From a bacterium (lineage in GTDB: Bacteria; Patescibacteriota; Minisyncoccia; Minisyncoccales; UBA10102), in NCBI GenBank assembly GCA_030647175.1, contig JAUSJU010000058.1:1-37560 (forward strand): 37,560 nt of DNA. The letters are read 5' to 3'. Each line of letters begins with the position of its first letter. The stretch's first letter is position 1. Shown here piece after piece: positions 9,857 to 35,851 of this stretch. The notes under the pieces are model-generated. The model was not told the origin of the DNA. It did not search any database and saw only the letters and a program-made list of their open reading frames with translations. The position numbers and the translations under genes were made by a program.

Positions 9857-10231
9857 TGTGCTCGCCGCGCTTGGTTATGCCGCGACAGAAGCGCTGTATC
9901 CTCCCGATAGGGCGATCAGGAGGGGGTAGCGGCTTCCGGCTAGACCGGCCCAAATCGTGCTGAGAAGTGTGGGAACTACGTGCTGCGTATACTTGCTGGC
10001 TTGGTCAGAAACCTAGAAGAACCGACCACTAGGACCGAGACTCCATTTCCATGGCCCTCGTCCCGGTTTCCTGTTCATCGCACTAAGTCCCGGCTTTCGC
10101 ATACAGAAGGAAGAGGAATTGAGTTTGGGGACGTGCGGCCCCAAGAAAGAACCCTCTGAACCTTCCCGTTCACGCAAAAATTTCGCAAAGTCGTTCATCC
10201 CATACCTCCTAAAACGAACGCGGCGAGCACA
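9857..10231 (-). ncRNA. candidate structured RNA of unknown class (about 375 nt), closed by a 13-bp terminal helix; alternatively an IR-bounded MITE-like element or a leader carrying a 61-aa ORF
   Basis: TGTGCTCGCCGCG at 9857..9869 is the exact reverse complement of 10219..10231. Internal helices include a 9-bp stem (9900..9908 / 9915..9923) that contains a G-U pair only on the minus-strand transcript. There is a GCCGC/GCGGC three-way junction and a CCAU-GGAA-AUGG tetraloop hairpin. The minus-strand terminator lies immediately 3'. Confidence 0.4.
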
Positions 10232-10242
10232 AGACAACACTA

Positions 10243-10277
10243 GCAAAAAGAAAAGAAAGGTCAACGACCCTCCTTTC
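10243..10277 (-). terminator. weak intrinsic terminator after the TRIC-channel gene
   Basis: The minus strand reads GAAAGG-N11-CCTTTC followed by TTTTCTTTTTGC. The stem is short and AU-rich. Confidence 0.35.
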
Positions 10278-10318
10278 TTACGATAGTGCTCTTGGCAAAA
10301 CACGGGCCCTTGAAAGGT

Positions 10319-18642: not shown

Positions 18643-18840
18643 TTCGTATGTAATAATATATTCTTAATTATTATTAGGGTTATTGTTATTGGTGTTGTGG
18701 ATAGTAAATTGTTTGAGATTAAATACATAGAGAACCGAGGTGTGGAAAATCTGGGGGGAGATGGGGGGAATAAAATAGGTGACGAGTTTGGCGAAAGATT
18801 TCCCCCTCCCTATCCACAAAGTGATCCACACTTATCCCCC
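18643..18840. other. candidate oriC segment: AT-rich unwinding region plus DnaA-box cluster in the dnaA-dnaN spacer
   Basis: The AT-rich run at 18643..18720 is followed by these boxes: TGTGGATAG (18696..18704), TGTGGAAAA (18741..18749), CTATCCACA (18810..18818), TGATCCACA (18822..18830) and TTATCCCCC (18832..18840). Consensus is TTATCCACA. Confidence 0.6.
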
Positions 18841-21433: not shown

Positions 21434-21897
21434 CCAAAGAACAGTTAGCTACAATTGAAGAGGTTGCCCAAGAGTTCTTCAGCCAGCTTGAGGTTGTGGG
21501 CGACATGGACGTGACCTCTCCGGCAGAGAATACAGCATCTATAGCTCTCACCATTGAGAACCCCGGGATGATTATCGGAGAGAACGGACAGACGCTGCTG
21601 GAGATCCAGCACCTGCTCCGCCGCATTCTGCAAAAGCGCATGAATATGCAATTGCCCCCTCAGGTGGCGCTTGACGTAAATAACTACCGGAAGGCGAAAG
21701 AAGAATATTTAAGGACAATGGCCAAGGAAGCAGCTGACGAAGTTCTCCTTCTGAAAAAAACCAAGGAGCTTCCTCCGATGTCATCGTTTGAACGCAGGGT
21801 TGTCCACGAGGAGATAGGGAAACGAGAAGGGCTGTCTTCAGAGAGTATAGGAGAAGGAGAAGACCGGAGAGTTGTGATCAAAGTCCGGTCACTCTGA
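21430..21897 (+). CDS. jag: Jag/KhpB RNA-binding protein (KH + R3H domains)
   Basis: KH-type GMIIGENGQTLLEIQHL and R3H-type SFERRVVHEEI...GEGEDRRVVI. The start at 21430 overlaps the yidC stop (ATGA). Confidence 0.85.
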   Translation: MTKEQLATIEEVAQEFFSQLEVVGDMDVTSPAENTASIALTIENPGMIIGENGQTLLEIQHLLRRILQKRMNMQLPPQVALDVNNYRKAKEEYLRTMAKEAADEVLLLKKTKELPPMSSFERRVVHEEIGKREGLSSESIGEGEDRRVVIKVRSL

Positions 21898-23679
21898 GGC
21901 CTCTGCCCGAGCTTTCCGTTCCAGGATGTCTTTCGGAGACGTGGTGACGATCTCGTGTTCTCTGGGAGAGGCGACTACTTTTACCGCAACATGTTTCTGC
22001 CCGGCAAAGAATATGCCTTCCCCGAGCTCTGTTTCCAAGAGGAGAGATTTTTCTGCACCCGTAAGGTTGAACGCTTTTTGTACAAGATCAATGGTAGCCG
22101 GCGACTGCTTGAGCAGGAGCTGCATGGAGGAGTTCGTGATGATGGGTTTTCCGTATTCTGACTTCATAAAGTCCCCTACATCCTGGGTGATGGTGGTTAC
22201 TCCCAGATAGTATTTCCTTGCTCGCTTTGCCATCCCATAGAGGAACGAGGCTCCGTCGTCTGATCTCATGATCCACCAGGCCTCATCCACTACGAGGATG
22301 CGCTTTTTTAATTCAGACCGCACTTTGTTCCACACGTACCGCATGATCATGTACATTGCCAAAGGCCTCAGCCCTTCTTCCATGTCGCGGATTCCAAACA
22401 CCACGAGTTTGTTGTTCGTGGTGATGTTAGAGGTCTGGTTGAAGAAGGAAGCATAGGTTCCTTTGGTGAATTTTCCCAATCTCCTCACTAAGGAGTCTGC
22501 CCCCTCCATGGTCTGGAGCACTTGTTCCAAGTCGCTCATGAGAGGGGTTTTTTCGTTCCAGGTTGCAGGGCTAGAAGTTGCGGTGATATCTTTTGCCGCA
22601 TAGGTTTCAGTAAGAGCCCTGTCCATAATCGCGTCTTCTTCAGGAGTTAATCCTCCGAGCATCAACCGCATCAATCCCACGAGGTTGATGATGTTGGACC
22701 TTAAGACGTCGTCTGCCGACTCATCCTCCCTGGGCATAGGAAGGTCGAAAGGATTGACATGGTTTTCAGAACTCAGAGAAATATCAAAGAATGATCCGCC
22801 CGCAGCTTCAGCTAAAGGTTTGTACTCGTTTTCAGGATCAAGAACAATGACGTCAACTCCGGTCATGACAGACCTCAATATCTCCAGCTTCACGGCGTAC
22901 GATTTTCCAGAGCCGGACTTTGCGAAGATAACTTCATTGGCGTTCTCTAGGCTGAACCTATCGAACAGGATGAGAGAATTGTTGTGCCGGTTGATCCCAT
23001 ACAGGATTCCTTCGCTGGAGCTTAAGTCAAAGGAAATAAAAGGGAATATGGAAGACAGCGGCCCCGTGTTCATGGTGGTGTGGATCTGCAAAAGGTCTAA
23101 CCCGTATGGGATTGCTGAGTTGAACCCTTCCTTCTGCTGGTACAGGGCCGGCTTGATGTACAAGAGCCTGGATTCAAAGATAGATCTCAGTTGCGTTTTT
23201 ATTCTCAGAAGATCTTCTGACGTCTCCCCGTAAATAGTGAGGTAGAGGCCGAGGCGGAACATCTTTTCCTGCGCTGTTTGCAGACGGTCTCGGAGAGTCT
23301 CAAGGTCTTGGAACCCGGTCTCCAAAGACGGGTCTCTCACCATGCCCTTTACCTGGCCTTCAAGGATCTCAGACTCCACCTCAGTCACCTTCCTCCTTAG
23401 CTGTTTTAACACCATAGAGGTATCTACAGGATGGGCGAACATGGAGATGTCCATGGGGACATCCATGTTGATGACCGGGGCCAGCCAGCCTGCCGTGAGG
23501 TATCTCGGGTAAGAGAACACGAAGAAGGAAACAGCAAGCCTCCCTCCCACATCAAGGTATTCAGACTCAATCTTCACCACCGCGGGAGCAATGATATCCT
23601 TTGCGGTGATGACGTCCTTTTCAAAGAGTTTCTCCGCAGACTTGGGGACCACCTGTTTTTTGAGAAATGGGAGTTGCAT
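21889..23679 (-). CDS. VirB4/TrbE/PrgJ-family T4SS ATPase, C-terminal 596-aa portion
   Basis: Walker A FAKSGSGKSYAV and Walker B RILVVDEAWWIM (DEAW typical of VirB4). The N-terminal segment IAPAVVKIESEYLDVGGRLAVSFFVFSYPRYL...DISMFAHPVD is like the mid-region of Gram-positive VirB4 proteins. Confidence 0.85.
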   Translation of the reverse strand: MQLPFLKKQVVPKSAEKLFEKDVITAKDIIAPAVVKIESEYLDVGGRLAVSFFVFSYPRYLTAGWLAPVINMDVPMDISMFAHPVDTSMVLKQLRRKVTEVESEILEGQVKGMVRDPSLETGFQDLETLRDRLQTAQEKMFRLGLYLTIYGETSEDLLRIKTQLRSIFESRLLYIKPALYQQKEGFNSAIPYGLDLLQIHTTMNTGPLSSIFPFISFDLSSSEGILYGINRHNNSLILFDRFSLENANEVIFAKSGSGKSYAVKLEILRSVMTGVDVIVLDPENEYKPLAEAAGGSFFDISLSSENHVNPFDLPMPREDESADDVLRSNIINLVGLMRLMLGGLTPEEDAIMDRALTETYAAKDITATSSPATWNEKTPLMSDLEQVLQTMEGADSLVRRLGKFTKGTYASFFNQTSNITTNNKLVVFGIRDMEEGLRPLAMYMIMRYVWNKVRSELKKRILVVDEAWWIMRSDDGASFLYGMAKRARKYYLGVTTITQDVGDFMKSEYGKPIITNSSMQLLLKQSPATIDLVQKAFNLTGAEKSLLLETELGEGIFFAGQKHVAVKVVASPREHEIVTTSPKDILERKARAEASE

Positions 23680-23681
23680 AG

Positions 23682-24320
23682 TTACCTGAATATTTCAGGA
23701 GGGATATCCGGATAGTACCCGATCTCAGCTTCTTTAGGGTGGTGCCAGCCCCACATCATTTCCATGAGCTCCTCGTTGCTCAGAGGGGCTGTTTTCAGTC
23801 CTACTCTGCGCAGTCCTAGGGCGACGAACTCCATGCGCTGCCAGAGCTGGAATTTCATGCGCTCAAACTCTTCCTCTGACATCTCGCCCGAAATCTTTGG
23901 AGCTTGGAACCCCTTCCGCTGTTCCATGGGTACGGTCTCAATGAGAGAAAAAGGGACTACCACGAAGAAGTTCTTTGCCATGATAGAAGCTCCCTGGATG
24001 AGTTGTTCCACAAATTGCCGGTAGTCTTGAGTGAGAGAGCGCATGAGATCGTTCTGCTGCTTCCCGTCCAGGTCCCTCAAGTAGTCCAGGTATCCTGTGA
24101 TGTTGAGGCGCCGCGACTGGATGAGGATTTGGAGGGAGAAATCAAGAGAATTGAGGAAATTCTGGAACTGGAAAATGGTGGCATCCTGCTCCTCTTCTGA
24201 TTTCAAGGCGAAGTTCTGGGCAGAAACCAGCATCACTCCCCGTATGGTCTTGTTTTTCAATACAAGAACGCCTTCCCGTATGGTTCCTATCTCAAGAAAA
24301 TCTTGTGCTGATTGAGGCAT
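23682..24320 (-). CDS. VirB4-family N-terminal domain encoded as a separate 212-aa ORF
   Basis: QDFLEIGTIREGVLVLKNKTIRGVMLVSAQNFALKSEEEQDATIFQFQNFLNSLDFSLQILIQS resembles the N-terminus of single-chain Gram-positive VirB4/TrsE/Orf16-type ATPases (from memory). Its TAA is followed by CT and then the ATG of the ATPase. Confidence 0.6.
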   Translation of the reverse strand: MPQSAQDFLEIGTIREGVLVLKNKTIRGVMLVSAQNFALKSEEEQDATIFQFQNFLNSLDFSLQILIQSRRLNITGYLDYLRDLDGKQQNDLMRSLTQDYRQFVEQLIQGASIMAKNFFVVVPFSLIETVPMEQRKGFQAPKISGEMSEEEFERMKFQLWQRMEFVALGLRRVGLKTAPLSNEELMEMMWGWHHPKEAEIGYYPDIPPEIFR

Positions 24321-24322
24321 AG

Positions 24323-24724
24323 TTATCTCCCGTCGAGCTTGCTCGACAGGCTCTTTAATTTGCTTTCTCTCGTAAGCGAAAGTTGTTCTGCGGTGAGATC
24401 TGGCATCGGAACTTCCTGGCTAGGTCCCGAAATGATGTTTGAGGCCCTCCCCTTTTTCCAGACGTATGTTTTTGTTCCCATAGTGAAGGAGAGGAATCCG
24501 ATGATAAGGGAAGGGAGAGATCTTCCGCTCATGCTGAAAAAAGCGAGAGAAGCCCCAATACCTACGACCAAGATTGTTCCTACAATAAATAAGGTGAATG
24601 GAAGCGTGAAATACATGACGAACGCAACAGCTCCCGCCGCTCCCACATAGAGGAATTGGCGGAATGTTAAGGGTCCTACGACCCGAGCTTCTCGTTCAAT
24701 GAATTGGGGAACTTGGAACTGCAT
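24323..24724 (-). CDS. PrgI-family (VirB3-like) small membrane protein
   Basis: MQFQVPQFIEREARVVGPLTFRQFLYVG followed by two TM helices. It lies immediately upstream of VirB4, as in Gram-positive T4SS loci. Confidence 0.75.
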   Translation of the reverse strand: MQFQVPQFIEREARVVGPLTFRQFLYVGAAGAVAFVMYFTLPFTLFIVGTILVVGIGASLAFFSMSGRSLPSLIIGFLSFTMGTKTYVWKKGRASNIISGPSQEVPMPDLTAEQLSLTRESKLKSLSSKLDGR

Positions 24725-24727
24725 AGA

Positions 24728-25186
24728 TTATGGGCAAGGGATGCTGAACCAGCCGTGCTGAAGGCCCGTCCAATTGGCCACGCCGACCACGACAAAGAAG
24801 AAATCAATGGCAAGCCAGCCCCCATAGAGGATGATGAGGGCTATGATCGTGTCCTTTATGATCGCCTTTCCTTTATCAAGAGACCCCGGGCTGCCCGCTG
24901 ACACTAAAAACATGAACCCTCCTGCCAAGAACATGATTACAGCTACTATCGGTATCAATCCTCCGGGTGGTACAAACAAGAAATTCAAGATGTTGTTGCC
25001 CAAGACGAAGAAATGACAGATTCTACAACTCTCTGCCCTCGAGTCATATAAGGAATCGTTATTCAGGTCATACCCGCAGGCAGGGGCTAGCTGCGCGTGC
25101 GCCTGGAGGAACGGAGTTCCGAGAGAAACCAAAAGCAGGAGAAGAAAGAACGAGGCGTTTCTTTTTGTGAGCAGGCTACTCTTCAT
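24728..25186 (-). CDS. VirB2/TrbC-like pilin candidate (152 aa)
   Basis: Signal peptide ending AHA-QL, then two hydrophobic helices separated by the short loop SAGSPGSLDKGKA. Four Cys in the mature part. The call rests on position and architecture only. Confidence 0.6.
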   Translation of the reverse strand: MKSSLLTKRNASFFLLLLLVSLGTPFLQAHAQLAPACGYDLNNDSLYDSRAESCRICHFFVLGNNILNFLFVPPGGLIPIVAVIMFLAGGFMFLVSAGSPGSLDKGKAIIKDTIIALIILYGGWLAIDFFFVVVGVANWTGLQHGWFSIPCP

Positions 25187-25643
25187 CTATTTTTTCAAGG
25201 TAAGTGTCTGATTTTCTCGGTCGTCCCCTTTTTGGAGTTTCGGGCTGGCGGGCTACTTTTGGAGCCTGTTCTTCAAGAGCAGCAGTAGCGGGGGCCCGGC
25301 TAGGGGAAGGCTTTCCTTGAACGATTATATGGATCTGGCTCAAGCTCTCTTTCACAGGGAAGAATATGAATCTATTGATTTCATGAGCAAGCTGAGATAG
25401 AGCATCTTTTTGCAAGCCAACTTTTTTCTCTATTGCACCGGGGAAATCTTCGGGCATTAATAAGCCCATCAATACGAGCCCTGCGTCAGCTGCAACCTCT
25501 CCTACCCGCGCGTCGGTAATCCCTTGTTTTTCACAGGCCGTCCGTATGGCATCCGCAGTTTGTACGGAAAAGATAGCTTCCTGAAGCTCATCCGGAAGTT
25601 TTTCATACGTCTGTTCTAATTGTTCCTGCGTGTATTCTGCCAT
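25176..25643 (-). CDS. hypothetical 155-aa protein, first gene of the VirB2/B3/B4 operon; C-terminal AT-hook-like PKRGRPRKS
   Basis: ORF with an ATG 6 nt after a perfect extended -10. N-terminal LPDELQEAIFS helical domain, a Pro/Ala-rich linker, then KRGRPRK. Confidence 0.6.
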   Translation of the reverse strand: MAEYTQEQLEQTYEKLPDELQEAIFSVQTADAIRTACEKQGITDARVGEVAADAGLVLMGLLMPEDFPGAIEKKVGLQKDALSQLAHEINRFIFFPVKESLSQIHIIVQGKPSPSRAPATAALEEQAPKVARQPETPKRGRPRKSDTYLEKIDEE

Positions 25644-25649
25644 ACCGAT

Positions 25650-25658
25650 ATTATATCA
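25650..25658 (-). promoter_or_regulatory. extended -10 box TGATATAAT, 6 nt upstream of ATG 25643 (leaderless-type operon promoter)
   Basis: The minus strand reads TTGTAG-17-TGATATAAT-ATCGGT-ATG. The TATAAT hexamer is perfect. Confidence 0.6.
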
Positions 25659-25697
25659 GCGCCAGTAGGGGGCTACAAGCGAACCCAAAACAAAGGG

Positions 25698-25727
25698 TTG
25701 ACAGATTCCTAGTTATTATGGTATAGT
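25698..25727 (+). promoter_or_regulatory. sigma70-type promoter TTGACA-18-TATAGT for the SPFH gene
   Basis: TTGACA at 25698..25703 and TATAGT at 25722..25727. It makes the ORF-track TTG start at 25727 implausible. Confidence 0.6.
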
Positions 25728-25780
25728 TGTACTTAGAACCCTCACAAAAGCATATAGAGAATAGAAAGGATGTGGCTATC

Positions 25781-27016
25781 ATGGGAGGAATCTTCGCTGT
25801 AGTGATACAGTGGATTGTAAGTCATTACTCTTTCCTGGCAACAGGAGCGGGTATTGTCATCGTGGCAATAGGAGCACTATCTTTAGTGCTTATAGCGCCG
25901 GCTATGTTTACCGGGGGGATTGAGGCGCCTGGATTATTCCCGGCCCCCACCATCCCTGGCGGATTTTCCGGGGTTCCTCTGCCCGGATTCGTAACTGGGC
26001 TTCCAGAACCCGCGGATTCCTTAACCAGGATTACTATCCTGTTAAGCACCGTAGTTGTTCTATGGCGTTTCGTTGCACGCAACATATTCGTTATAGTGCA
26101 TCAGGAGAACAGGGCTGTGATTGAGAGGTTCGGCAAGTTTAACCGAGTCTTGAAATCCGGACTGTACTTTATTCTACCCTTCGGGATAGAGGAGGTGCGA
26201 GTCAATATGCCCGTATGGCAGATGACGATGCCGCTTTTTCCATCCTCAATCCAGATTGATTTCAAGGATGGAGGCAGCGCCGCACCAGTTGGCGCGGAAG
26301 CATGGCTTCGTATCTTTAGTCCAGACACGGAATATTCCGTTGACGGCGACACGCCGCGCAACGGGGTGTTCAGGGCTCTGTACGGGGTTGCAAATTGGCG
26401 TACGGCAACACAAGCCGCAGCCGAGCACGCTCTTCGCGGATATCTTGGGACTCAACTCCTCGAAGACATACTGCAGACAACGGATGCTCAAACAGGATTC
26501 GATCTGCTGACTCTTCTGGCTCAACACCAAGGAGATGAGCTAAAGAAAGTATTCAGAGGTTTGGGATTTGAAGTATTGCGCATTACCGTGCAAGATTTCA
26601 ATCTCGGTCCCGAGGTTCTTGCAGCAAGGCGCGGAGTCATGGAAAGCCAGCGACAAGCAGATGCCACCATCTTCCAGAGAAGGACACGTTCCCAGGAAAC
26701 GATGGGTGCGGTGGTCCAGATGGTAGCCGATGCTGTCGGGAAGACGTATGAGGAAACTCAACAATGGCTTGCTCAGCATCCTGAACAGTGGCAACAGGTG
26801 ATCGATCTGGCCACGAAGCTAGTCTTGCGCCAGATGAGTGTCGACGGGAAAGCTCTTCATCACTTCGTCGTCGAAGGATTCGAGCCTCTCGTAGGAGGGA
26901 TCTCCACTATCGCCGAGTTGATTCGAGGTGGAACAGGTCCTACGGCGCAAGGCAACGGCGGTACAGCGCCTGCTATTACCACAACCGGCGCACAGCCTGT
27001 GGCCACCCCTGCCTAG
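25781..27016 (+). CDS. SPFH/Band-7 (stomatin/prohibitin-like) membrane protein with Gly/Thr/Ala/Pro-rich C-terminal tail
   Basis: N-terminal hydrophobic segments, then IVHQENRAVIERFGKFNRVLKSGLYFILPFGIEEVR, typical of the SPFH domain start. GAAAGGA lies 9 nt before ATG 25781. Confidence 0.8.
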   Translation: MGGIFAVVIQWIVSHYSFLATGAGIVIVAIGALSLVLIAPAMFTGGIEAPGLFPAPTIPGGFSGVPLPGFVTGLPEPADSLTRITILLSTVVVLWRFVARNIFVIVHQENRAVIERFGKFNRVLKSGLYFILPFGIEEVRVNMPVWQMTMPLFPSSIQIDFKDGGSAAPVGAEAWLRIFSPDTEYSVDGDTPRNGVFRALYGVANWRTATQAAAEHALRGYLGTQLLEDILQTTDAQTGFDLLTLLAQHQGDELKKVFRGLGFEVLRITVQDFNLGPEVLAARRGVMESQRQADATIFQRRTRSQETMGAVVQMVADAVGKTYEETQQWLAQHPEQWQQVIDLATKLVLRQMSVDGKALHHFVVEGFEPLVGGISTIAELIRGGTGPTAQGNGGTAPAITTTGAQPVATPA

Positions 27017-27098
27017 TAAAAGGTTCGGATGGAAAACGTCGGTGCAAGGACGCGCCAAGAATAATAGCAACCACAGCATTCGCACAAGGTTGCTTCCA

Positions 27099-27132
27099 GG
27101 GCGAGCTTTATACAAGCTCGCCTTTTTATTTT
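27099..27132 (+). terminator. intrinsic terminator of the SPFH gene
   Basis: GGCGAGC-N9-GCTCGCC (27100..27106 / 27116..27122) is followed by TTTTTATTTT. On the minus strand no T-tract follows. Confidence 0.75.
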
Positions 27133-29634
27133 CTATGCTTCTCCTCTTCCCATCCTGGTATATGCGGTCCGCACTTCGTCGTCAGTCATAGCGTTTATCT
27201 GCTCATTGGTGCGTCCTCCTCTCTGGAAGAGCTCTCTTCTCAGGAGAGCTGTATTGTTTCCTCCTGCAGCTTCTCTGAATCTACTTCCTGCTCCGGTATC
27301 AGGAGAAGACGCTTGGCTGCGCCGACTTCCTTCGCCAGTATCAGGAGAGACAGAAAGAGTTTCCCGAGATGCGGAAGCCGTAGATGGAGCGGAACCTCTT
27401 CTTGCAATCACCTGCTCCATTCTTTGGATTTGTCCTTGTATGTCTTGGTTTACCTGTTTGAATTTCTGCACCTCCTTCATCATTTCTGGCTCGCTAGCGT
27501 AGTATCGTTCATTTTCAAGGGTGCTAATTTTCGAGTCGTTTTCTGCAACCTGGGTCCGCATTCTTTCGATTTCCTGGTTGAGCTCAGGTATTGGTCTCCG
27601 ATAATTTTGTACATACTCTTTCAGCCCATCTTCTGTAAGGTTTCCGATAGATTTGACTCCAAGGCCTCTTGCAGTGGAACTCGTAGACCAAGTTAATATA
27701 TCTTCTGCGTCATTCCCCACAAACCAATCGGGTCCGAGCGACTGAACATAGTTCCAGATAGCTTGTCGGTCCGTTCTTTTCGCACGGCGGAGTAGTCCCG
27801 GCATAACGTCGGAGCCTTTCTCCTTCATAATTTTATCAAGAGTTTCTCTTGAAAGTTTTTGCGCGGCCTCTGTTTTCTCTTTATCAACCTCATCATCACC
27901 GTTCGCATCTTTTTTCCCGGTATATATTTTTATTTCGGGGTTGAGATACTCAGCAAGAACTCGATCATTCTTGAAGTCATCGTCAGAAAGCTTTTTTAGG
28001 GTGCTTTCCTGTTCTTTCGCTCCTACACCAAGCGCATCCATTTGTCCCACGAATGCTTTGGATATAGATCTGCTTACATGAGGGCCCCGGCTCCAAGCAG
28101 CCTGGTAGACTCTCTTCAGATCTCCCATATTAAGCCGGCCCGCTTTAATTGCTGTATTAAGGTCGTCAACATCGTTATTTCCTATTAGTCCATTAACCAA
28201 ACCGATTGCCTTATTCATACCTGCAAGGTTGCCTGTTCCGAGGGTAGCGATCAATTCGTTAATCAAGACCTCTGGGTTCTTGCCAGAAGCCGCTGTCTTT
28301 GCCTTAGCCATTTCCACATCGTCAAGCGCTTGCATTTGAGCAGTAGGCTTCATTAACGCAGACCCCAACATTTGAAGCGCTCCTCCAGGAGAGCGCACCG
28401 CATACTTGAGTGTTCCTCCAAGAAGGGGCACGTTCTGGACCCCTTGAGGAATTTTTTCTGCCAGGCTCGTCTGATACCCTCCAAGGCGTTGAAGCCCTTT
28501 TCCTACCTTATCCGAAATAGGGGCACCCACTCTTCTCCAAGCAGAACTTCCCAGGATCTGAGCTCCGCTTTTTGCCTTTCCAGCCATCCATTCTGGCGCA
28601 TTCATGCCGAACGAATGTGATTTTATGGCGTTGAATCCCATGGCGTTTGACTGCAGTCCCATGAAGAAGCCGATCAAGAGCACGATGTCAGCTATGATGA
28701 AGGGTATGACCTCGTTGAATATGTTCGCCAACCCTCTTACAACAGGCAGATTCCCCGTTTCAGGGAGCTGAGAAGTAAACCCTCCCTTGGCGGCAAGCGC
28801 GATGGTATGATCTCCGAGCCAGAGGAAGAACGCCGCAAAAATCCCAACCGTGGACCACTCGATAAATTGGTCGAACCACTTGGTAAAGAATCCTTTGGTC
28901 GCGGGGAGTATGAGGGATATGAGAGCTATGGGAGAAAGGATGACAAGAATCCAGATCATCACTTTTCGTACGAAGAATAGGGTGGCGTAGAAAAAGAAGA
29001 TTACGGCGGTAAGTATATTAAAGAACCCGATCGCCAATATTTTTGCCAGGAAAGCAGGGAAGTTAGAATTCCCGGATGAACCGCTGATGATTGCGTCAAG
29101 GTTGGACCCTACGCTCGTGAGCACCTGAGTTCCCAAGAGCCCTTCCAGAAAGAAGTTCATGACAATGTTCGTCGCATCAACGACGAATCCCATAAGGACG
29201 GGTGCGAAGTTGATGAGAACCGCTATGGCGACCAGGCGAGGAAGCGCCTTTTTCGCCTCGTAATCTCCGAGCCGCAACGCGGTACCAAGACCGATGAAAA
29301 TAAGGATGAGCACCAAGAGCATGTTCGCAAAGTCGCGGACGATGGGCCAGGCCACATCAATAACGCCTCCTGTAGTATAGGGAACTCGGATGAATTGCGG
29401 ATCAATGGATTGCTGGAGCATTAAAGAAGACATGAACAGCAGGCCAGTAGGGATCGCCAGCATGATTCGCGAGAATATCCACCCTATTGCGTCGGGGATG
29501 ATCTGGCCGAGGCTTCCGATGAATCCGAACACATCTTGTTGAGCGGATGCAACGTCAACAGGCACCACAAAGGCAGTAATGAGCATTAAGCTCAATGGGA
29601 ATACTCCGTACTTTTTGATGGTGTTGAGGTTCAT
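27133..29634 (-). CDS. polytopic membrane protein, VirB6/TrbL-like candidate, with a roughly 500-aa hydrophilic C-terminal extension
   Basis: 833 aa. Signal or TM segment plus multiple TM helices in the first 330 aa or so, then a coiled-coil-rich soluble region ending in a duplicated SPDTG(E/A)GSR. The assignment rests on architecture and context, not on a recognised motif. Confidence 0.5.
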   Translation of the reverse strand: MNLNTIKKYGVFPLSLMLITAFVVPVDVASAQQDVFGFIGSLGQIIPDAIGWIFSRIMLAIPTGLLFMSSLMLQQSIDPQFIRVPYTTGGVIDVAWPIVRDFANMLLVLILIFIGLGTALRLGDYEAKKALPRLVAIAVLINFAPVLMGFVVDATNIVMNFFLEGLLGTQVLTSVGSNLDAIISGSSGNSNFPAFLAKILAIGFFNILTAVIFFFYATLFFVRKVMIWILVILSPIALISLILPATKGFFTKWFDQFIEWSTVGIFAAFFLWLGDHTIALAAKGGFTSQLPETGNLPVVRGLANIFNEVIPFIIADIVLLIGFFMGLQSNAMGFNAIKSHSFGMNAPEWMAGKAKSGAQILGSSAWRRVGAPISDKVGKGLQRLGGYQTSLAEKIPQGVQNVPLLGGTLKYAVRSPGGALQMLGSALMKPTAQMQALDDVEMAKAKTAASGKNPEVLINELIATLGTGNLAGMNKAIGLVNGLIGNNDVDDLNTAIKAGRLNMGDLKRVYQAAWSRGPHVSRSISKAFVGQMDALGVGAKEQESTLKKLSDDDFKNDRVLAEYLNPEIKIYTGKKDANGDDEVDKEKTEAAQKLSRETLDKIMKEKGSDVMPGLLRRAKRTDRQAIWNYVQSLGPDWFVGNDAEDILTWSTSSTARGLGVKSIGNLTEDGLKEYVQNYRRPIPELNQEIERMRTQVAENDSKISTLENERYYASEPEMMKEVQKFKQVNQDIQGQIQRMEQVIARRGSAPSTASASRETLSVSPDTGEGSRRSQASSPDTGAGSRFREAAGGNNTALLRRELFQRGGRTNEQINAMTDDEVRTAYTRMGRGEA

Positions 29635-29635
29635 A

Positions 29636-30442
29636 TTACTTCACTACTTGGAGCGAACAGCAGAAGAAATTATTTGTCTGGCACTGCTGTTGGGCGTCAT
29701 TGAGGATTTTTAGATATTTTGCTTCCTGGCAGGAATATATGGCATCGGTCCGCTGAATGATCTCTCCTTCGGAAGTCTGCTGGTTTACCGGAGTCACGCA
29801 GGCCTGGAGGGCGCGGCGGACATCCGCCAATGCATTCATGATATGCGTCCTTTGGGTATTGGGGAGGCACTCTTTGGGGCATCCCTGCCCCGCTCCTCCG
29901 GGCCCGCCGCACCCTGCAGGACAGTTCTTTATCAAAGAAGAAGGGGCTGGAACTTTCTTCCCAAGAAGGTCTTTGATCGCGTCATTCTCTTGTTGTACCT
30001 GGCCGTAGTACCCGTTTACCCCGGCAATCCTGCTTTCAACTTGGCTTTTTGCGTCCGTTGAAAAGGGTTGTCCGGTGCACGAGTTCGTTATGCAGGAACA
30101 TCCGCCCTCTTTCGAACATACGGTAGTGCAAGAGCTCGTGCAGTTTTGCACCTTGGCCTCGCTCTCCAGATCTGTCAGAAGTTTAGACTCCTTGATCTGG
30201 GCTTTTGCCGAGCTCGCTATATTGAAAAGCGAAGTCAGAAGCTGTTGATGAAATTTATCTGCTTCGTCAACCAAGGTTCCTGCGGGAATCTCTTTATCTA
30301 AGCATATGAGTTCCACCTTCTGGGCGAGAGCTTCGTCAATGAACGTCGTTCTTTGATTATACCCAAAGCCGATGAAAATCAAAACAGCAAAGAAGAAAAT
30401 GGCGGAAGTTGTGTAAAGGGGTTGTTTCATGCCAGGGATCAT
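29636..30442 (-). CDS. N-terminally anchored Cys-rich protein (268 aa), unknown family
   Basis: TM anchor AIFFFAVLIFIGFG and about 18 Cys, including GGCSCITNSCTGQPF and CPAGCGGPGGAGQGCPKEC. ATGA overlap with the upstream gene. Confidence 0.65.
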   Translation of the reverse strand: MIPGMKQPLYTTSAIFFFAVLIFIGFGYNQRTTFIDEALAQKVELICLDKEIPAGTLVDEADKFHQQLLTSLFNIASSAKAQIKESKLLTDLESEAKVQNCTSSCTTVCSKEGGCSCITNSCTGQPFSTDAKSQVESRIAGVNGYYGQVQQENDAIKDLLGKKVPAPSSLIKNCPAGCGGPGGAGQGCPKECLPNTQRTHIMNALADVRRALQACVTPVNQQTSEGEIIQRTDAIYSCQEAKYLKILNDAQQQCQTNNFFCCSLQVVK

Positions 30443-31251
30443 TCTGCCGTTATATTCACGCCGATATTAGCTTCTACGTATGCGGCAAGGGTGCTATTCG
30501 CATCTTCTAGTGCCTTTTTCTTTTTTGCCAATGCTGCTTTGTCACAGGGCTCTCCGGTGCATTGAAGAGCAGAACACGAAGGAGCCCCGCCACAATGAGG
30601 AATGACCGTGTTTCGGGAACAACTGCATCGATCAAGCTCGTCTTTGTATGCTTGCGCCTTATCTCGAGCATCTTTGGCAAGATCTTCTGCTTGCTGCGCG
30701 ATAGAGGCTAACTGAGCGAGCGTCCGCTCATCCATAACGCGCTCAACGAGATCTCCCGCGGGGACCTCCAAGAGCTCCGAACCCACTTTCTTCTGTTCAG
30801 TTATCGGCTTGCATATTTTCGCGCAGAACCCTTGGGTCGGATTTGAACAATCGCATGGCGTGATCGGCGAAGCGGGTTTTTCAAGCCGCAAAATATTAAG
30901 CTGCGGATTAATGGTGCCCAGCAAGAGCGAAGATCCCAAAAGGACGAGGATCCCTATTACCGCTCCAGAAATTCTGCTTCGTGCCGCGGTCTGCGAAGCC
31001 ACATTTCCTCCGGAGGTTAAATATTGGACGCCTCCAAGAACCACAGAGCCCATGGCAATAAACCCGGAAGCCGTGATGAGGAAGTAGTACAGGTAGAGAA
31101 TGAATTCAGGAAGCGTTGGCTGGAGCGTGAGCCGTACGCCATTAGGAAGCGTAGGATACTGGATCTCGGTACCTTGGGCGAACGCAATACCGCTGGGCAA
31201 GAGCAAGGCCAGAAGAAAAAGTACGCCCAGATGCTTACTGATAGAACGCAT
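30439..31251 (-). CDS. second VirB2-like pilin module fused to a coiled-coil/Cys-rich C-terminal domain (270 aa)
   Basis: Signal peptide ending AFA-QG. Two hydrophobic helices are separated by TSGGNVASQTAARSR, then about 150 aa carry CDC...C..IC and RCSCSRNTVIPHCGGAPSCSALQCTGEPC. Confidence 0.6.
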   Translation of the reverse strand: MRSISKHLGVLFLLALLLPSGIAFAQGTEIQYPTLPNGVRLTLQPTLPEFILYLYYFLITASGFIAMGSVVLGGVQYLTSGGNVASQTAARSRISGAVIGILVLLGSSLLLGTINPQLNILRLEKPASPITPCDCSNPTQGFCAKICKPITEQKKVGSELLEVPAGDLVERVMDERTLAQLASIAQQAEDLAKDARDKAQAYKDELDRCSCSRNTVIPHCGGAPSCSALQCTGEPCDKAALAKKKKALEDANSTLAAYVEANIGVNITAE

Positions 31252-32200
31252 AGAGATAGTTTGTGCTGAATCTATTGATTACGTCGCTTGCGAGGAACGC
31301 CGCCTCCCCTCCTCCGATGTATGGATCCTGGAAATAGAGGCATGTATCGGTGACGCCTCCTATGGTGCATCTCCCAATTCCTTTGATCAGAGAGATGTGT
31401 CCGTACGTACAGTTCAGCGGACCGCTAAACTTGAAGCAGCCGAAGGATCCAACGATTGGATGCCCCTCCTTTAGATGCTCTTCAATGGCAGAGAAGGGGA
31501 TACTAGCCTGATACCCTATTCCATATTGGTCATATGCGAACCTTGCCAGGTTAGGGAGGGAAGATCCGAAGCCGCAAATGTATTCAATCCCTCCCCTGAC
31601 CGCTTGCGCGATCGTTGCGGGAGTGATGTTCTCGCCGAAGTATTTCAATACCATTGCAATGCTCGTGATTCCGCAGCCGCCTTCCTGCATAGAATTTCCT
31701 GCGCTGCACTGGTCAATGAGCTGTCGTGCCCACGAGGAGTCTGTTTGAGAGAAAGGAGGGATATTGAGCATGGTTGCGTCTGTCGGGACCGGGATCGGGC
31801 CAAAGTTTGGAGGAACGCCTGCTCCTCCTCCGGGAGGAGTGACAAGAGGATAGTTTTGCGGGAGCAATTCTCCACCAACCCCGTACACTTTATCTATTAC
31901 GTGTCGATCGAGCACGGTATCAATGTAAAACGTAAGAGGGTCGTTTCCTGTGGCAGGTATCAGTTGTCCCATGGCTCTGAATGTTTTGATGTCAGCTTTC
32001 TTCCCTCCGGCATTGAGCAGAAGCTGGGAAAGCTCAAGATACTCGTCGTAGTTGATCGGCTGTATCGCTTCCTTGAGCACGATACCCACAGACCCCAAAG
32101 AGCCCCCGTCCCTCATATATTGGATTACCGTTTCAGCGTTCGCTGAAGTCGTTAAAGGAAGGGAAAGGAAGAAGAGTATGGCAAAAACAATTTTCTTCAT
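31235..32200 (-). CDS. secreted papain-like (peptidase C39-like) cysteine peptidase, candidate cell-wall hydrolase or processing enzyme
   Basis: Signal peptide MKKIVFAILFFLSLPLTTSANA and a Gly/Pro linker (TPPGGGAGVPPNFGPIPVP). PPFSQTDSSW...GGCGITSIAMVLKYFG gives the catalytic Cys context and TYGHISLIKG a candidate His. ATG at 32200 is preferred over TTG at 32218. Confidence 0.6.
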   Translation of the reverse strand: MKKIVFAILFFLSLPLTTSANAETVIQYMRDGGSLGSVGIVLKEAIQPINYDEYLELSQLLLNAGGKKADIKTFRAMGQLIPATGNDPLTFYIDTVLDRHVIDKVYGVGGELLPQNYPLVTPPGGGAGVPPNFGPIPVPTDATMLNIPPFSQTDSSWARQLIDQCSAGNSMQEGGCGITSIAMVLKYFGENITPATIAQAVRGGIEYICGFGSSLPNLARFAYDQYGIGYQASIPFSAIEEHLKEGHPIVGSFGCFKFSGPLNCTYGHISLIKGIGRCTIGGVTDTCLYFQDPYIGGGEAAFLASDVINRFSTNYLYAFYQ

Positions 32201-32201
32201 A

Positions 32202-32594
32202 TCAACTCTTGAGTTCAAAATATACGAGCATAGTCCAGAGAGGGAGGGCGCTGACGCCTGGAATGAATTCTCCTAAAAATGTTCCTATCCTCCCCAGCCA
32301 TTTGAAGTTTCGAACCATGGGCTTTCCTCCTTTCCCGAGCTGCTGAGGACGTTTCCCCCGGACGAGAAGCCATAGTCCTACAACGCATATGCCGGTGATG
32401 TCGGTTACGACATTCACTCCAGGGATGATGCTGAGTACGTCAATAATTCCCGCAATGAAAAGCATTATGATTCCTTCCGGAGTCAGTATGGCTCCGAATC
32501 CTTTGCTTTGCCCTTGCTGAGTTTCAGCATTCGCTTGCTGGTTTCTTTGCGGCGCTTGATTTGTTTGAGGTTCTTTCTGCTGTTCTTCTGGCAT
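32202..32594 (-). CDS. hypothetical membrane protein (130 aa) with Gln-rich N-terminus and three TM segments
   Basis: The ORF-track 32202..32630 is trimmed to ATG 32594, which overlaps the rsmA stop (TAATG). Next gene starts 1 nt after its stop. Confidence 0.55.
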   Translation of the reverse strand: MPEEQQKEPQTNQAPQRNQQANAETQQGQSKGFGAILTPEGIIMLFIAGIIDVLSIIPGVNVVTDITGICVVGLWLLVRGKRPQQLGKGGKPMVRNFKWLGRIGTFLGEFIPGVSALPLWTMLVYFELKS

Positions 32595-33418: not shown

Positions 33419-33484
33419 AGGGGGTGTGGATAGGAAGCTTGACTTTGGGTCTGGAAAAGCCTATTCTGTATACTGTTATTGTAT

Positions 33485-34480
33485 ATGAGCCAAGGCCAAG
33501 GAGAAAACTCGCATAGAGGGGATTCCAAAGCACAGCTTCTCTTTATTATACCGCTTATCGGTATTTTTTTGTCGGGGTTGGCGTTCGGAGGGGGTACCAC
33601 GGCTTCCTCTCTGCCTTCAGCCCAGCTTTTAGGGCAGGTTTCGGCATCTCAGGCTCCTTTGCCTGAGGATCCCCAGCTCGTTCTCGTGGGAGACAACGCG
33701 CTTTCTGCCTTTTCTCCGCCCGTAGCAGTCACCTCCAAGGTATTGGGAGCCATCATGGGACAGCCTGATGACGGAGAAGCTTCTATCATAACCTATGATG
33801 CGGAACAAGGAGACACCCCTGCTTCTGTCGCAGAGCGCTTCGGAATCTCTTTGAACACCGTTCTCTGGGCAAACGACCTGACTGCGTCTTCTGTCTTGAA
33901 AGAAGGGAAAGAGCTTCTCATTCTTCCTGTCTCAGGAGCTTTACACATGGTGCGCTCTGGAGACACGCTATCTGAGATCGCCACGTGGTACAAGGGGAGC
34001 TCAAAGGAGATATCTGAGTTCAACAACCTGGATTCCGGGAAAATCTTTGCAGGAGACATAGTCATCATTCCAGGGGGTACAAAGCCAAAATCTTTGCCTT
34101 CAGGGCGCCTTGTGCCCTTGGCCAACTCCTACTTCATCTGGCCTATTCCTGCCCCGCACGTCATTACCCAGGGACTGCACCCTTTCAACGCGGTTGATAT
34201 GACCACGGGATCATGCGGGTCTCCCGTATACGCTGCAGCCGGAGGGAACGTGCAGAAAACAGGGTATTCCTCTGTCGGCGGGAACTACGTCCGTATTCTC
34301 CATCCCAACGGGGTTGTGACGTACTATGGCCACCTTTCAGGACTTGCCGCATCTACAGACTCCAGGGTTTCCCAGGGCCAGATCATCGGATACATAGGGA
34401 ACACGGGACACACCGTAGGAGCTACGGGATGCCACTTGCATTTTGAGGTCAGAGGAGCTGCCAATCCGTTCGCCAGGTAG
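33485..34480 (+). CDS. LysM-domain M23 family metallopeptidase
   Basis: TM anchor and two LysM repeats (YDAEQGDTPASVAERFGISLNTVLWAN; HMVRSGDTLSEIATWYKGSSKEISEFN). M23 motifs NAVDM, NYVRILHPNGVVTYYGHLS and CHLHFEVR. Confidence 0.9.
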   Translation: MSQGQGENSHRGDSKAQLLFIIPLIGIFLSGLAFGGGTTASSLPSAQLLGQVSASQAPLPEDPQLVLVGDNALSAFSPPVAVTSKVLGAIMGQPDDGEASIITYDAEQGDTPASVAERFGISLNTVLWANDLTASSVLKEGKELLILPVSGALHMVRSGDTLSEIATWYKGSSKEISEFNNLDSGKIFAGDIVIIPGGTKPKSLPSGRLVPLANSYFIWPIPAPHVITQGLHPFNAVDMTTGSCGSPVYAAAGGNVQKTGYSSVGGNYVRILHPNGVVTYYGHLSGLAASTDSRVSQGQIIGYIGNTGHTVGATGCHLHFEVRGAANPFAR

Positions 34481-34483
34481 GGA

Positions 34484-34846
34484 TTACGAAATCTTGGCGC
34501 AATTGACGCACGTCCGAGCTTCGGGGAGCGCAAACAGGCGCTCTTTTTGAATCTCTTGAGAGCACTTTTCGCATATCCCGTATGTTCCCGCAGGAAACTT
34601 CTCTAAAGCGTTCTGCACGTCTTGCAGCGTCTTTTCAAGGCTCTGCTCTACGGGAAGGCGCGTGGAGTATTCTTCTACTTCGTCAGCGGCTTCTTCTTCG
34701 TTCCCTTCGGGAGTCCTGGGGTATCTTGTGTCCCAGTCCCCTTTCGTCTTTAGATCTTTAGAGGCAAAACTAGAGAGCTGTTTTTCCAGCTCTTCTTTTT
34801 TCTTGCGCAGCGCTTCCTGCAGGTCGGTTTTTATTTGTTCGTCCAT
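34484..34846 (-). CDS. DksA/TraR family C4-type zinc-finger protein
   Basis: Coiled-coil N-terminus and C-terminal CEKCSQEI...TCVNC (CxxC-N17-CxxC). Confidence 0.82.
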   Translation of the reverse strand: MDEQIKTDLQEALRKKKEELEKQLSSFASKDLKTKGDWDTRYPRTPEGNEEEAADEVEEYSTRLPVEQSLEKTLQDVQNALEKFPAGTYGICEKCSQEIQKERLFALPEARTCVNCAKIS

Positions 34847-34852
34847 ATGGTG

Positions 34853-35815
34853 TTATTGAGTTGATATATTGTCTATGAGAGCTTTCATGCTTTCTAAGGA
34901 TCCGGTTACCAGGAGGCGGTCTTGCAGTAGGGCGTATACGAGACCAAAGTCATTGTTGGACAGCGTTTGGTACCTGATGGAAACTTGTTGATACAGAGTT
35001 GTCCTGAAGAACGAAATGTACCCTTCACCCTTTTCTCCCATGATACCAAAGAATTCCGTTGTGTCACGCTCTAAAGTGGGCTCCCACGACTTCATGAGAA
35101 CAGCCGCCTGTTCTGCATTCTGGACCTTTGTCACGAATCCCAGGCGATTCTTTGAATTTGTAGCATACAGAAACGGCGTCGTAGTTTCTTCAAGCAAGGG
35201 CCCGAGTCCTTGGAGCGGGAAGATGAAGAATGCTCCGAGAAAAGTTTGCGTTGACGCATACTCCCCCCCGTTCTTCAAAAGGATTCTCGTAAATCCTGGA
35301 GCAAGGGTTTCCTGCAATGATTGAGAGAGGAGGTCTGGGATCTGGGAAGCATCCGTATACTCTACAAGAAGGGAGTTCTGCTCATGGATGAGCGATTCCG
35401 GAGGAAGGGCGGGCTGCGCAGGAATTTGTTCTTGCTGCTGCCCTTCCGGCGAAGGTCCTTGCTGGGAAGATCCTTTTTTCGAGAGGACGTAGTATCCCAG
35501 AGCTATGAGGTTGGCGACAAGGAACAAGGTGATGCTTGCGACGACCACTCGCACGACTATTTTCTCAAGCAGCGACTGGGGTTTGTGCTGAGGAGGGATC
35601 AGCACGACTTTTTCCGCACCTGGTTCCGTCCCGCTTTCTTGAAGGGCAGGAAGAGGAGTTTCTTGCTGGGGCTGCGCTTTCTTTCCCGTCTGAAGTTGAA
35701 CGATATGTTCGCGCTCGTTCTTGGCCTCCTCCTCTCGGAGACGCGCCATATCTTTTGCCATGGTGCGGATATCCTCCCTATGGAGGAACTCCAGCTTTTC
35801 ACCTGTTTCTTCCAT
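34853..35815 (-). CDS. hypothetical single-pass membrane protein (320 aa)
   Basis: Charged N-terminus, TM segment VVVASITLFLVANLIALGYYVL, and an extracytoplasmic domain with no recognised family. The ATG lies 6 nt after an extended -10 box. Confidence 0.6.
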   Translation of the reverse strand: MEETGEKLEFLHREDIRTMAKDMARLREEEAKNEREHIVQLQTGKKAQPQQETPLPALQESGTEPGAEKVVLIPPQHKPQSLLEKIVVRVVVASITLFLVANLIALGYYVLSKKGSSQQGPSPEGQQQEQIPAQPALPPESLIHEQNSLLVEYTDASQIPDLLSQSLQETLAPGFTRILLKNGGEYASTQTFLGAFFIFPLQGLGPLLEETTTPFLYATNSKNRLGFVTKVQNAEQAAVLMKSWEPTLERDTTEFFGIMGEKGEGYISFFRTTLYQQVSIRYQTLSNNDFGLVYALLQDRLLVTGSLESMKALIDNISTQ

Positions 35816-35821
35816 GGACTT

Positions 35822-35830
35822 ATTGTATCA
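35822..35830 (-). promoter_or_regulatory. extended -10 box TGATACAAT, 6 nt upstream of ATG 35815 (leaderless-type)
   Basis: The minus strand reads TGATACAAT-AAGTCC-ATG, identical to the polA box. Confidence 0.5.
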
Positions 35831-35851
35831 GGTTTTCCCTGACGCGCCACG

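Follow-up and report, generated by a model that had tools for sequence, protein, structure and literature searches.

A probable Paceibacteria-type chromosomal type IV secretion system on a patescibacterial contig

The gene cluster considered here occupies positions 21889-32594 of contig JAUSJU010000058.1 (assembly GCA_030647175.1; Patescibacteriota, Minisyncoccia, Minisyncoccales, UBA10102). The window analysed, 37,560 bp in length, is the complete contig of a metagenome-assembled genome (MAG), and all absences reported below hold within that contig. With a probability of roughly 85%, the cluster is best explained as a Paceibacteria-type chromosomal type IV secretion system (T4SS) of the Patescibacteria, a vertically inherited derivative of monoderm (MPF-FATA) conjugation machinery in which DNA-processing functions were lost and VirB2-like pilins gained. 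The locus is real and biologically important, and it is a further Paceibacteria member of the published T4SS that ultrasmall parasitic Patescibacteria maintain beside their replication origin, to which it adds no class. An earlier note on this DNA, made from the sequence, had supposed that such a composition was not an established system; this does not hold, as it had already been described in 2023 and 2025 (PMC10633639, PMC12102498). The window therefore serves as a clean Paceibacteria example that confirms the published layout.

The gene cluster and its motor core

According to the open reading frame (ORF) table, ten minus-strand genes lie inside 21889-32594, one fewer than had been counted in the earlier note, for which rsmA would be the eleventh. 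The genes are as follows.

21889..23679, minus strand: VirB4-type ATPase body, 596 aa (conju_CD1110, Walker motifs)
23682..24320, minus strand: TrsD-like protein, 212 aa (homology to the VirB4 N-terminal domain)
24323..24724, minus strand: PrgI/VirB3-like membrane protein, 133 aa (PF12666)
24728..25186, minus strand: short VirB2-like pilin, 152 aa (PF18895; signal peptide and two hydrophobic helices)
25176..25643, minus strand: o155, conserved and predicted cytoplasmic 155-aa protein, first gene of the core operon (no known family)
27133..29634, minus strand: extended VirB6-like polytopic protein, 833 aa (sub-threshold TrbL match)
29636..30442, minus strand: o268, signal-anchored, predicted extracellular protein with 16 Cys (Cys-rich module)
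30439..31251, minus strand: pil270, extended pilin with a VirB2-like signal peptide and helical hairpin (residues 1-124) and a Cys-rich module (156-266)
31235..32200, minus strand: secreted papain-like Peptidase_C39_2 protein, 321 aa from the ATG at 32200 (Pfam)
32202..32594, minus strand: o130, small membrane protein (about three hydrophobic helices; N-terminal tail variable)

The core operon runs from o155 through the short pilin, PrgI/VirB3 and TrsD to VirB4, and the second operon comprises o130, the C39-like peptidase, pil270, o268 and the VirB6-like protein. Read base by base, the ORFs are intact and translationally coupled, and each of the junctions given in the earlier note was confirmed by this reading and by the ORF table. 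The sequence TAATG at 32594 joins the stop codon of rsmA with the start of o130, and the second operon is translationally coupled to rsmA. o268 and pil270 meet at an ATGA junction (30439-30442). Gaps of 1 nt are found at 29635 and 32201 (the latter if the C39 gene begins at the ATG at 32200), of 2 nt at 23680-81 and 24321-22, and of 3 nt at 24725-27, with overlaps of 11 nt at 25176-25186 and 17 nt at 31235-31251. The division into two minus-strand operons that was proposed in the earlier note thus stands as to its junctions, but it left unmentioned a gene for an SPFH/Band-7 protein that lies between them on the opposite strand and divides the cluster into two transcription units.

The identity of the VirB4 ATPase is secure, in agreement with the earlier assignment. 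The protein harbours a Walker A (AKSGSGKSY) and a Walker B motif (ILVVDEAWW), exceeds the curated cutoff of the NCBIfam model conju_CD1110 (E 5.7e-109; 365 bits against a cutoff of 325; model positions 178-733 of 752) and matches P-loop_TraG in Pfam (E 2.7e-23). Its sole sequence match in the PDB is the C-terminal domain of VirB4 (4AG5, E 1.2e-42). At 596 aa, the ATPase is without the first ~200 residues of full-length VirB4. The adjacent 212-aa protein, which was never assigned in the earlier note and whose stop codon is 2 nt from the start of VirB4, is collinear with residues 25-197 of a 797-aa clostridial VirB4 (BLASTP E 1e-7) and matches the NCBIfam model VirB4_plasma (E 3.3e-7) in the N-terminal part of VirB4 models, with a weak match to TrsD (0.019); in PHROGs it gave nothing beyond a spurious terminase-like match. 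On this homology it is the detached N-terminal domain of VirB4, TrsD-like, and VirB4 is split in two. The third component of the core, PrgI, scores above the Pfam gathering threshold, as its earlier designation as PrgI/VirB3-like would lead one to expect (PF12666; E 6.2e-7, 30.3 bits against 27), and contains one long hydrophobic stretch (residues 24-67).

These genes are conserved together among relatives of the window. In a scan of one genome per GTDB species, 529 species-level contigs carried a VirB4 relative, and the locus counts given throughout cover the best 80 of these, with gene pairs regarded as adjacent when they lie within 60 nt of each other. TrsD is present in 78 of the 80 loci (adjacent to VirB4 in 73 of the 78) and PrgI in 74 (adjacent to TrsD in 66 of the 74). 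Where loci have full flanks, the recurrent order is rsmA, variable genes, VirB6-like, o155, PrgI, TrsD, VirB4, jag, yidC, rnpA, dnaA and dnaN; in some loci, o130 and pilins are located between VirB4 and jag. This order is present in dozens of Paceibacteria species, and the synteny comparison that the earlier note had suggested thus reveals a cluster whose arrangement is conserved along with core genes. All of the best 80 VirB4 relatives belong to MAGs of the Patescibacteria (Wildermuthbacteria, Nealsonbacteria, Parcubacteria and Paceibacterota) and are 67-91% identical, whereas the best of more than 5000 plasmid VirB4 matches, of the CD1110 family and from Actinomycetota and Bacillota, reach 28-36% identity. 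With identity as a proxy for grouping, the VirB4 of the window would therefore fall with patescibacterial proteins rather than with those of plasmids or integrative and conjugative elements (ICEs).

The VirB6 assignment is the weakest in the cluster and rests on a sub-threshold TrbL match, a polytopic topology and a conserved position. The TrbL match covers residues 133-278 of the 833-aa protein (E 2.1e-5; 24.8 bits against a gathering score of 25.9), about 7-8 hydrophobic segments are found in residues 1-330, and the gene is located upstream of o155 in 53 of the 80 loci. Residues ~340-833 form a hydrophilic, coiled-coil-rich extension that belongs to no family, and the profile of the VirB6-like family retrieved nothing but coiled-coil noise from the PDB. 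Within the 3' part of the gene, at 27269-27348, a 38-nt tandem duplication (76% identity) makes the peptide S-P-D-T-G-x-G-S-R recur in the protein's disordered C-terminal tail.

Extended pilins, o155 and o130

Two genes of the cluster encode VirB2-like pilins, an identity that is secure at the family level from profile comparison. Taken individually, both fall below the gathering score of the T4SS_pilin family (PF18895), the 152-aa pilin with E 1e-4 and 22.8 bits against 26.6 and pil270 with E 1.6e-4. The families of the two proteins align with each other at an hhalign probability of 100% (E 9.5e-43) and are thus one family, of whose relatives 28 out of 44 match PF18895 (best E 8.3e-10) and one matches TrbC/VirB2. 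The two VirB2-like pilins recognised in the earlier note are accordingly retained on the strength of these family profiles. Hydrophobic segments of the short pilin span residues 11-31, 65-101 and 108-142, and both pilins carry ordinary Sec-type signal peptides.

The C-terminal half of pil270 and the neighbouring protein o268 share a single module (BLASTP E 4e-5; hhalign probability 99.3%, E 5e-20), in which an E-[IV]-P-x-G motif is followed by a helix and a Cys-rich C-x-C…C-T-G-x-P region. o268 has one hydrophobic segment, at its N-terminus (residues 7-29), and no family match in Pfam, NCBIfam or PHROGs. Members of the module family carry an N-terminal T4SS_pilin domain in 17 of 34 cases, and the family profile retrieved nothing from the PDB. 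An AlphaFold2 (AF2) model of pil270, built from five sequences, had a pLDDT (predicted local distance difference test) score of 52 and was not used for a fold search. In relatives, the module joins the T4SS_pilin hairpin to a range of heads: Peptidase_C39_2, M23, NosD/β-helix, Ig_Rha78A_N and lamin-tail (LTD) domains. Pilin-family ORFs in these relatives are often long (64 of 107 exceed 400 aa), and the pil270 orthologues of the two nearest relatives, 413 aa in length and 61-64% identical, possess an additional C-terminal lysozyme-like domain (SLT_3, PF18896). In the nearest relative (locus L081, 4361-6444), an M23 peptidase and a pilin-SLT_3 protein occupy the place held in the window by the C39 peptidase and pil270.

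The C39-like cysteine peptidase reported in the earlier note is confirmed by a Pfam match above the gathering score (PF13529; E 1.5e-10, 42.2 bits against 24) and by retention of the catalytic Cys (GCGITS), His (YGHIS) and Asp (QDPY), which are conserved with relatives; the protein has no sequence relative in the PDB. The same domain is fused to pilin/Cys-module proteins in loci L025, L032 and L038 and stands at the C-terminus of a 535-aa protein in L067. Among relatives the hydrolase slot is kept and the enzyme is swapped, which supports a VirB1-like or host-envelope role rather than leader-peptide processing. The C39 protein is therefore probably an envelope-hydrolase 'head' in a VirB1-like slot, judging from these comparisons.

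The o155 protein belongs to a large family of helical proteins linked to T4SSs. Of the 80 VirB4 loci, 66 contain it, and in 55 of the 66 it is adjacent to PrgI; a profile search of 1.84 billion representative proteins retrieves 6,720 clusters with E<=1e-3, nearly all of 130-180 aa. Metagenomic loci found through o155 reproduce the linkage: PrgI and TrsD are present in 28, and VirB4 in 27, of the 31 loci with enough downstream DNA, and a VirB6-like gene in 26 of the 27 with enough upstream DNA. The protein has no match in Pfam, NCBIfam or PHROGs and is devoid of hydrophobic segments. AF2 predicts a confident six-helix domain in residues 1-109 (pLDDT ~90 for residues 11-100), followed by a disordered basic and proline-rich linker, and the alignment reveals a C-terminal D-x-Y-(R)-E motif whose Y and E are invariant. 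Foldseek returned no fold at E<=0.001 from the PDB or BFVD, and a profile search of the PDB gave nothing significant. These features suggest that o155 could be an adaptor in the cytoplasm that binds, through its tail peptide, to VirB4/TrsD or another partner.

The family of o130 is found in 47 of the 80 loci and, in relatives, usually directly precedes the pilin genes. It is characterised by conserved D52, W75 and P112 residues and a GE-x-IP-x-VG-x-LPFWT motif, and had no match in the family searches, PHROGs included. In profile comparisons with hhalign, neither o130 nor o155 resembles the PrgI, pilin, TrsD or VirB6 family. Of the five products that the earlier note had left without a family, o130 and the C-terminal extension of the VirB6-like protein remain so, whereas o268 and the C-terminal half of pil270 have proved to share one module and o155 to belong to a large family.

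Taken together, VirB2-like hairpins and a disulfide-rich stalk might form a modular 'extended pilin' scaffold with swappable heads, with o155 serving as the VirB4/TrsD adaptor. Both features may be so far undescribed elements of parasite–host contact. This combined proposal is tentative and less likely than not to be right. Were it true, head swapping between close relatives would track host range, and o155 would functionally replace the missing coupling protein or recruit substrate.

Kinship, function and rival explanations

The system to which this locus belongs is known from both genetic and genomic work. In a transposon sequencing study of Candidatus Southlakia epibionticum ML1, Wang et al. 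2023 (Cell) found an apparent T4SS, SEML1_0006-0019, to be essential for epibiotic growth; it resembles Gram-positive conjugative systems, has essential pilins and has no recognisable coupling or relaxase proteins (PMC10633639). Across a survey of 3,035 genomes, Quiñonero-Coronel et al. 2025 reported VirB4 in 2,417, with the patescibacterial proteins forming a monophyletic Patescibacteria clade nested in MPF-FATA (PMC12102498). Of the components associated with it TrsD is the commonest, the others being PrgI/VirB3, VirB6 and VirB2-like pilins, which frequently form arrays; relaxases were found in 103 genomes only. In Paceibacteria and Microgenomatia, neighbours of the system include dnaA, dnaN, rnpA, ksgA (= rsmA) and rpmH, and the authors proposed an effect of origin-proximal gene dosage and a co-opted, possibly importing function (PMC12102498). 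A 2025 FEMS review regards these systems as a distinct newcomer to the T4SS superfamily (PMC12857230).

With this Patescibacteria clade, the window shares VirB4, the TrsD-like protein, PrgI/VirB3, VirB2-like pilins and hydrolases of the peptidase/lysozyme type and, if its tentative assignment is right, the VirB6-like protein, as well as a chromosomal location beside dnaA, dnaN, rnpA, rpmH and ksgA and the absence of a relaxase nearby. It differs from the Southlakia system in its lineage, which is Paceibacteria-like rather than Saccharimonadia, in having two pilin-family genes where that system has an array of six, and in its hydrolase, here a C39_2 peptidase. A term search of the main text of PMC12102498 found no mention of the o155 family, of the SPFH gene or of the Cys-rich stalk module. 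What the present analysis adds, modestly, is the o155 family, the Cys-rich module common to o268 and pil270 and the exchange of heads among extended pilins, the last likewise not found described in that text. Among T4SSs, that of the Patescibacteria was the first found essential to the cell that carries it, and it is the foremost candidate for the means by which a very large share of uncultured bacteria exploit their hosts. For experiments, handles are offered by o155, the split VirB4 and the modular proteins built of pilin, stalk and hydrolase, which bear different heads in near relatives.

The MPF-FATA conjugative systems of monoderms (among them the CD1110/CD1112/CD1115 module that clostridial elements like pCDC3875 carry, pGO1 Trs and pCF10 Prg/Pcf) share with the locus a VirB4 of the CD1110 family. 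In pCDC3875 the genes run VirB6–PrgI–x–VirB4–x–SLT hydrolase, so that the VirB6–PrgI–…–VirB4–hydrolase order is also shared, with the VirB6-like candidate in the place of VirB6, and the pGO1 subclass is reported to have TrsD as a protein of its own (PMC12102498). In contrast to these systems, the contig has no VirD4-type coupling protein, relaxase or oriT and no recognised VirB8-like protein, its cluster is chromosomal and vertically inherited rather than mobile, and it possesses the VirB2-like pilins that Gram-positive systems lack; VirB4 identity amounts to just 28-36%. Four functional classes, VirB2, VirB3, VirB4 and, tentatively, VirB6, are common to the window and the Gram-negative VirB/Trw core. 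Unlike the latter, the window has neither a VirB7/9/10 outer-membrane core nor VirB5, VirB8, VirB11 or VirD4, its envelope is monoderm, and many of its pilins and those of its relatives carry large extracellular extensions.

In Gram-negative R388/VirB models, pilins are extracted by an ATPase and polymerised on a VirB6 platform. Applied to the window, VirB3 (PrgI) would anchor the VirB4/TrsD motor at the membrane, as in characterised T4SSs, and VirB4 would pull Sec-inserted pilins from the membrane and pass them to the VirB6 platform, as the R388 model has it. The product would be a pilus or a short conduit through the cell's own wall. Pilin-like anchors with a Cys-rich stalk would bear interchangeable heads (C39, M23, SLT_3 lysozyme, Ig or β-helix) that bind the host envelope and open it locally, acting on the cell's own wall, on that of the host or on both. 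The structure would thereby mediate a host-dependent exchange, and it is such exchange that would make the system essential in cultivated relatives (Saccharibacteria). Conjugation is the less likely use; most probably, host macromolecules would be taken up or proteins would be delivered.

Several points weigh against this account. For the Paceibacteria, the evidence is genomic, and the proteins are predicted rather than demonstrated components of a pilus. Counterparts of VirB8 and VirB5 were not recognised in the window, and the pilus-assembly model, being derived from Gram-negative systems, may not transfer. Few members of the VirB6-like family match TrbL (3 of 40 relatives) or TrbL_4 (3 of 40), and its hhalign probability against the clostridial CD1112 VirB6 is 1.8%. 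The C39-like enzyme could process a protein instead of cell wall. A type IV coupling protein (T4CP) or relaxase may reside on other contigs of the MAG, and transport could be either import or export.

One version of the preferred explanation, plausible though short of being the expected outcome, is a system dedicated to the import of nucleic acids, in which the pilus or conduit draws in host DNA or RNA as a source of nucleotides. Helicobacter pylori ComB and archaeal Ced are T4SS-related uptake systems, and as relaxase-less T4SS relatives used for import they provide a precedent for a cluster with no relaxase or T4CP near it. The VirB4 of the window weakly resembles the Ced ATPases, with scores that fall far short of the family cutoffs (CedB E 5.5e-11, 41.8 bits against 700; CedD E 1.7e-4), but no other Ced or ComB components are recognised. 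Import of DNA or other macromolecules has been proposed (PMC12102498). A 2026 preprint describes tubular parasite-to-host structures and uptake of host RNA in a cultivated strain of Microgenomatia, reports monophyly of polynucleotide phosphorylase (PNPase) and VirB4 in the phylum, proposes that PNPase processes host RNA and invokes T4SS pili (bioRxiv 10.64898/2026.06.21.733656). The PNPase gene, pnp, lies 3.3 kb from the cluster in the window and is syntenic in several relatives. This linkage may be functional, or it may be just the housekeeping synteny of origin-proximal genes, and the preprint itself leaves the route of RNA uptake unresolved. Moreover, no nucleic-acid-binding component is recognised in the cluster, and in S. 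epibionticum, according to the FEMS review, ComEC-dependent DNA uptake is separate and dispensable whereas the T4SS is essential (PMC12857230).

A second proposal, possible but rather doubtful, is that the system exports and displays effectors and enzymes, placing hydrolases, adhesins or toxins onto or into the host in order to attach to it, breach its envelope and manipulate it. Protein export, or an alternative role, was suggested by Wang et al. because DNA-transfer parts are missing (PMC10633639). In support of this proposal, many pilin-family proteins of relatives bear enzymatic or adhesive heads, the operon includes a secreted C39-like peptidase with an intact catalytic triad, and the disordered basic tail of o155 with its conserved C-terminal motif might be a secretion or docking signal. 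Set against this, all head-bearing proteins have Sec signal peptides or anchors and would therefore need no T4SS for their export, and no effector-like cargo or coupling protein is recognised on the contig.

A third possibility, that the cluster is a decayed or integrated conjugative element which lies near the origin by chance in this genome, is very improbable. VirB4, PrgI and the putative VirB6 do derive from monoderm conjugation modules, and even close relatives are not alike in the variable part of the locus. Yet the insertion point and core gene order are shared by dozens of species-level genomes, the VirB4 relatives are 67-91% identical, and the ORFs are intact and coupled. GC content is flat along the window (0.47-0.52), and searches of ORFs of at least 96 aa for domains found no relaxase, T4CP (VirD4/TcpA), VirB11 or integrase on the whole 37.56-kb contig; there are no att-like repeats flanking the cluster, the flanking repeats being limited to 16-18-mers at chance level. 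No sequence match to a VirB8-like component (PrgL/TraM/TcpC) was found among the window ORFs in Pfam or NCBIfam. The absences listed in the earlier note (relaxase, coupling ATPase, VirB11, integrase and att repeats) are thus upheld across the contig. That no coupling protein was found is valid for this contig only, since VirD4-like matches are reported far from virB4 in most patescibacterial genomes (PMC12102498). Flat GC, conserved synteny and the lack of att-like repeats rule out the ICE hypothesis; together with the VirB4 identities and the lack of mobility genes, they favour the domesticated Gram-positive-type machine envisaged from the outset. Finally, the alternative that the ATPase is a HerA/FtsK-type translocase and that the small membrane proteins are unrelated to VirB2 and VirB3, raised in the earlier note, is refuted and almost certainly wrong, as a partial DUF87/HerA match (35.6 bits, ~50 residues around the P-loop) is set against a VirB4 model that extends with 365 bits across the whole protein, above its curated cutoff, a PDB match to VirB4 (4AG5) alone, a PrgI match that passes the Pfam gathering score, and a pilin family that matches PF18895 to E 8.3e-10 and has one TrbC/VirB2 member.

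Origin-proximal setting and neighbouring genes

The contig is composed almost wholly of housekeeping genes. To the left of the cluster are tRNA-Arg and genes for a Mur ligase, uvrB, holA, a CheY-like receiver, polA, tsaE and a GspE/PilB-type ATPase, followed by yebC, ruvC, tyrS, a class A penicillin-binding protein, dnaN, dnaA, rpmH, rnpA, yidC and jag, of which the last six adjoin the cluster directly. To its right are rsmA, a LysM-M23 hydrolase, a DksA/TraR zinc-finger protein, a 320-aa protein and pnp. The core-gene flanks named in the earlier note, jag on one side and rsmA on the other, are thereby confirmed. Further features of this setting are the following.

18643..18831 (189 nt), no strand: dnaA-dnaN spacer, candidate oriC (DnaA-box-like 9-mers)
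25727..27016, plus strand: SPFH/Band-7 protein (Pfam Band_7, E 1.8e-13)
27098..27124, no strand: strong terminator-like hairpin with an 11-bp stem (6 G-C pairs) and then a T run (consensus match only)
33479..34480, plus strand: LysM-LysM-Peptidase_M23 peptidoglycan hydrolase (Pfam M23 E 2.7e-23, LysM E 2.3e-16)

A scan of the window for TTATCCACA with at most one mismatch gave 9 matches against 6.2 expected, a total that is not above chance, and 4 of the 9 fall within 135 nt (18696-18830). This clustering of DnaA-box-like 9-mers in the dnaA-dnaN spacer supports the view that the T4SS cluster begins ~3 kb from a plausible oriC. The origin proximity suggested in the earlier note is thus supported by both the dnaA/dnaN neighbourhood and the DnaA-box-like cluster.

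The SPFH gene has homologues at a matching position, upstream of VirB4 and on the opposite strand to it, in 23 of the 80 related loci, and its product may be an accessory component of the T4SS. Promoter-like sites are found in the divergent region near 25.7-25.8 kb, including a strong one at the SPFH gene (25698-25727, 11/12 match); since the scan as a whole was at chance level (10 sites found against 9.9 expected), individual sites are only suggestive. The TTG listed as the start of the SPFH gene overlaps the -10 element of this strong site, and the true start is therefore probably further downstream. At its other end, the SPFH gene converges with the gene for the VirB6-like protein, and the terminator-like hairpin lies in the spacer that separates the two. 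At the left boundary of the cluster, VirB4 (minus strand) and jag (plus strand) share 9 nt at their 3' ends (21889-21897), which leaves no room for a terminator between these convergent genes.

The LysM-M23 hydrolase gene is divergent from rsmA and syntenic beside it in 25 loci. Its product may be a T4SS-associated cell-wall hydrolase; VirB1-type matches with M23/LysM domains are linked to virB4 in Paceibacteria (PMC12102498). The surrounding block at 33479-37519, with pnp, the gene for the 320-aa protein (one transmembrane segment), the DksA/TraR gene, the LysM-M23 gene and rsmA, keeps its synteny with the T4SS in several Paceibacteria, loci L006, L009, L051 and L078 among them.

Between tsaE and yebC (11809-13107, plus strand), the contig encodes a 432-aa ATPase of the GspE/PilB type (TIGR02533, E 1e-130, below the equivalog cutoff), which is part of a separate Patescibacteria system resembling type IV pili or type II secretion systems; no other pilus genes adjoin it. 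As the only T2SSE-family ATPase on the contig, it was considered as a displaced VirB11, a candidacy ruled out by its GspE/PilB type. A stand-alone CheY-like receiver protein of 122 aa is encoded between holA and polA (7225-7593, minus strand), and no histidine kinase is found on the contig. Four minus-strand ORFs (34853-35815, 426-920, 3525-4028 and 10013-10303) have no match in NCBIfam, and the first two have none in Pfam either. The first of these, which encodes the 320-aa protein, is kept beside dksA in 7 related loci.

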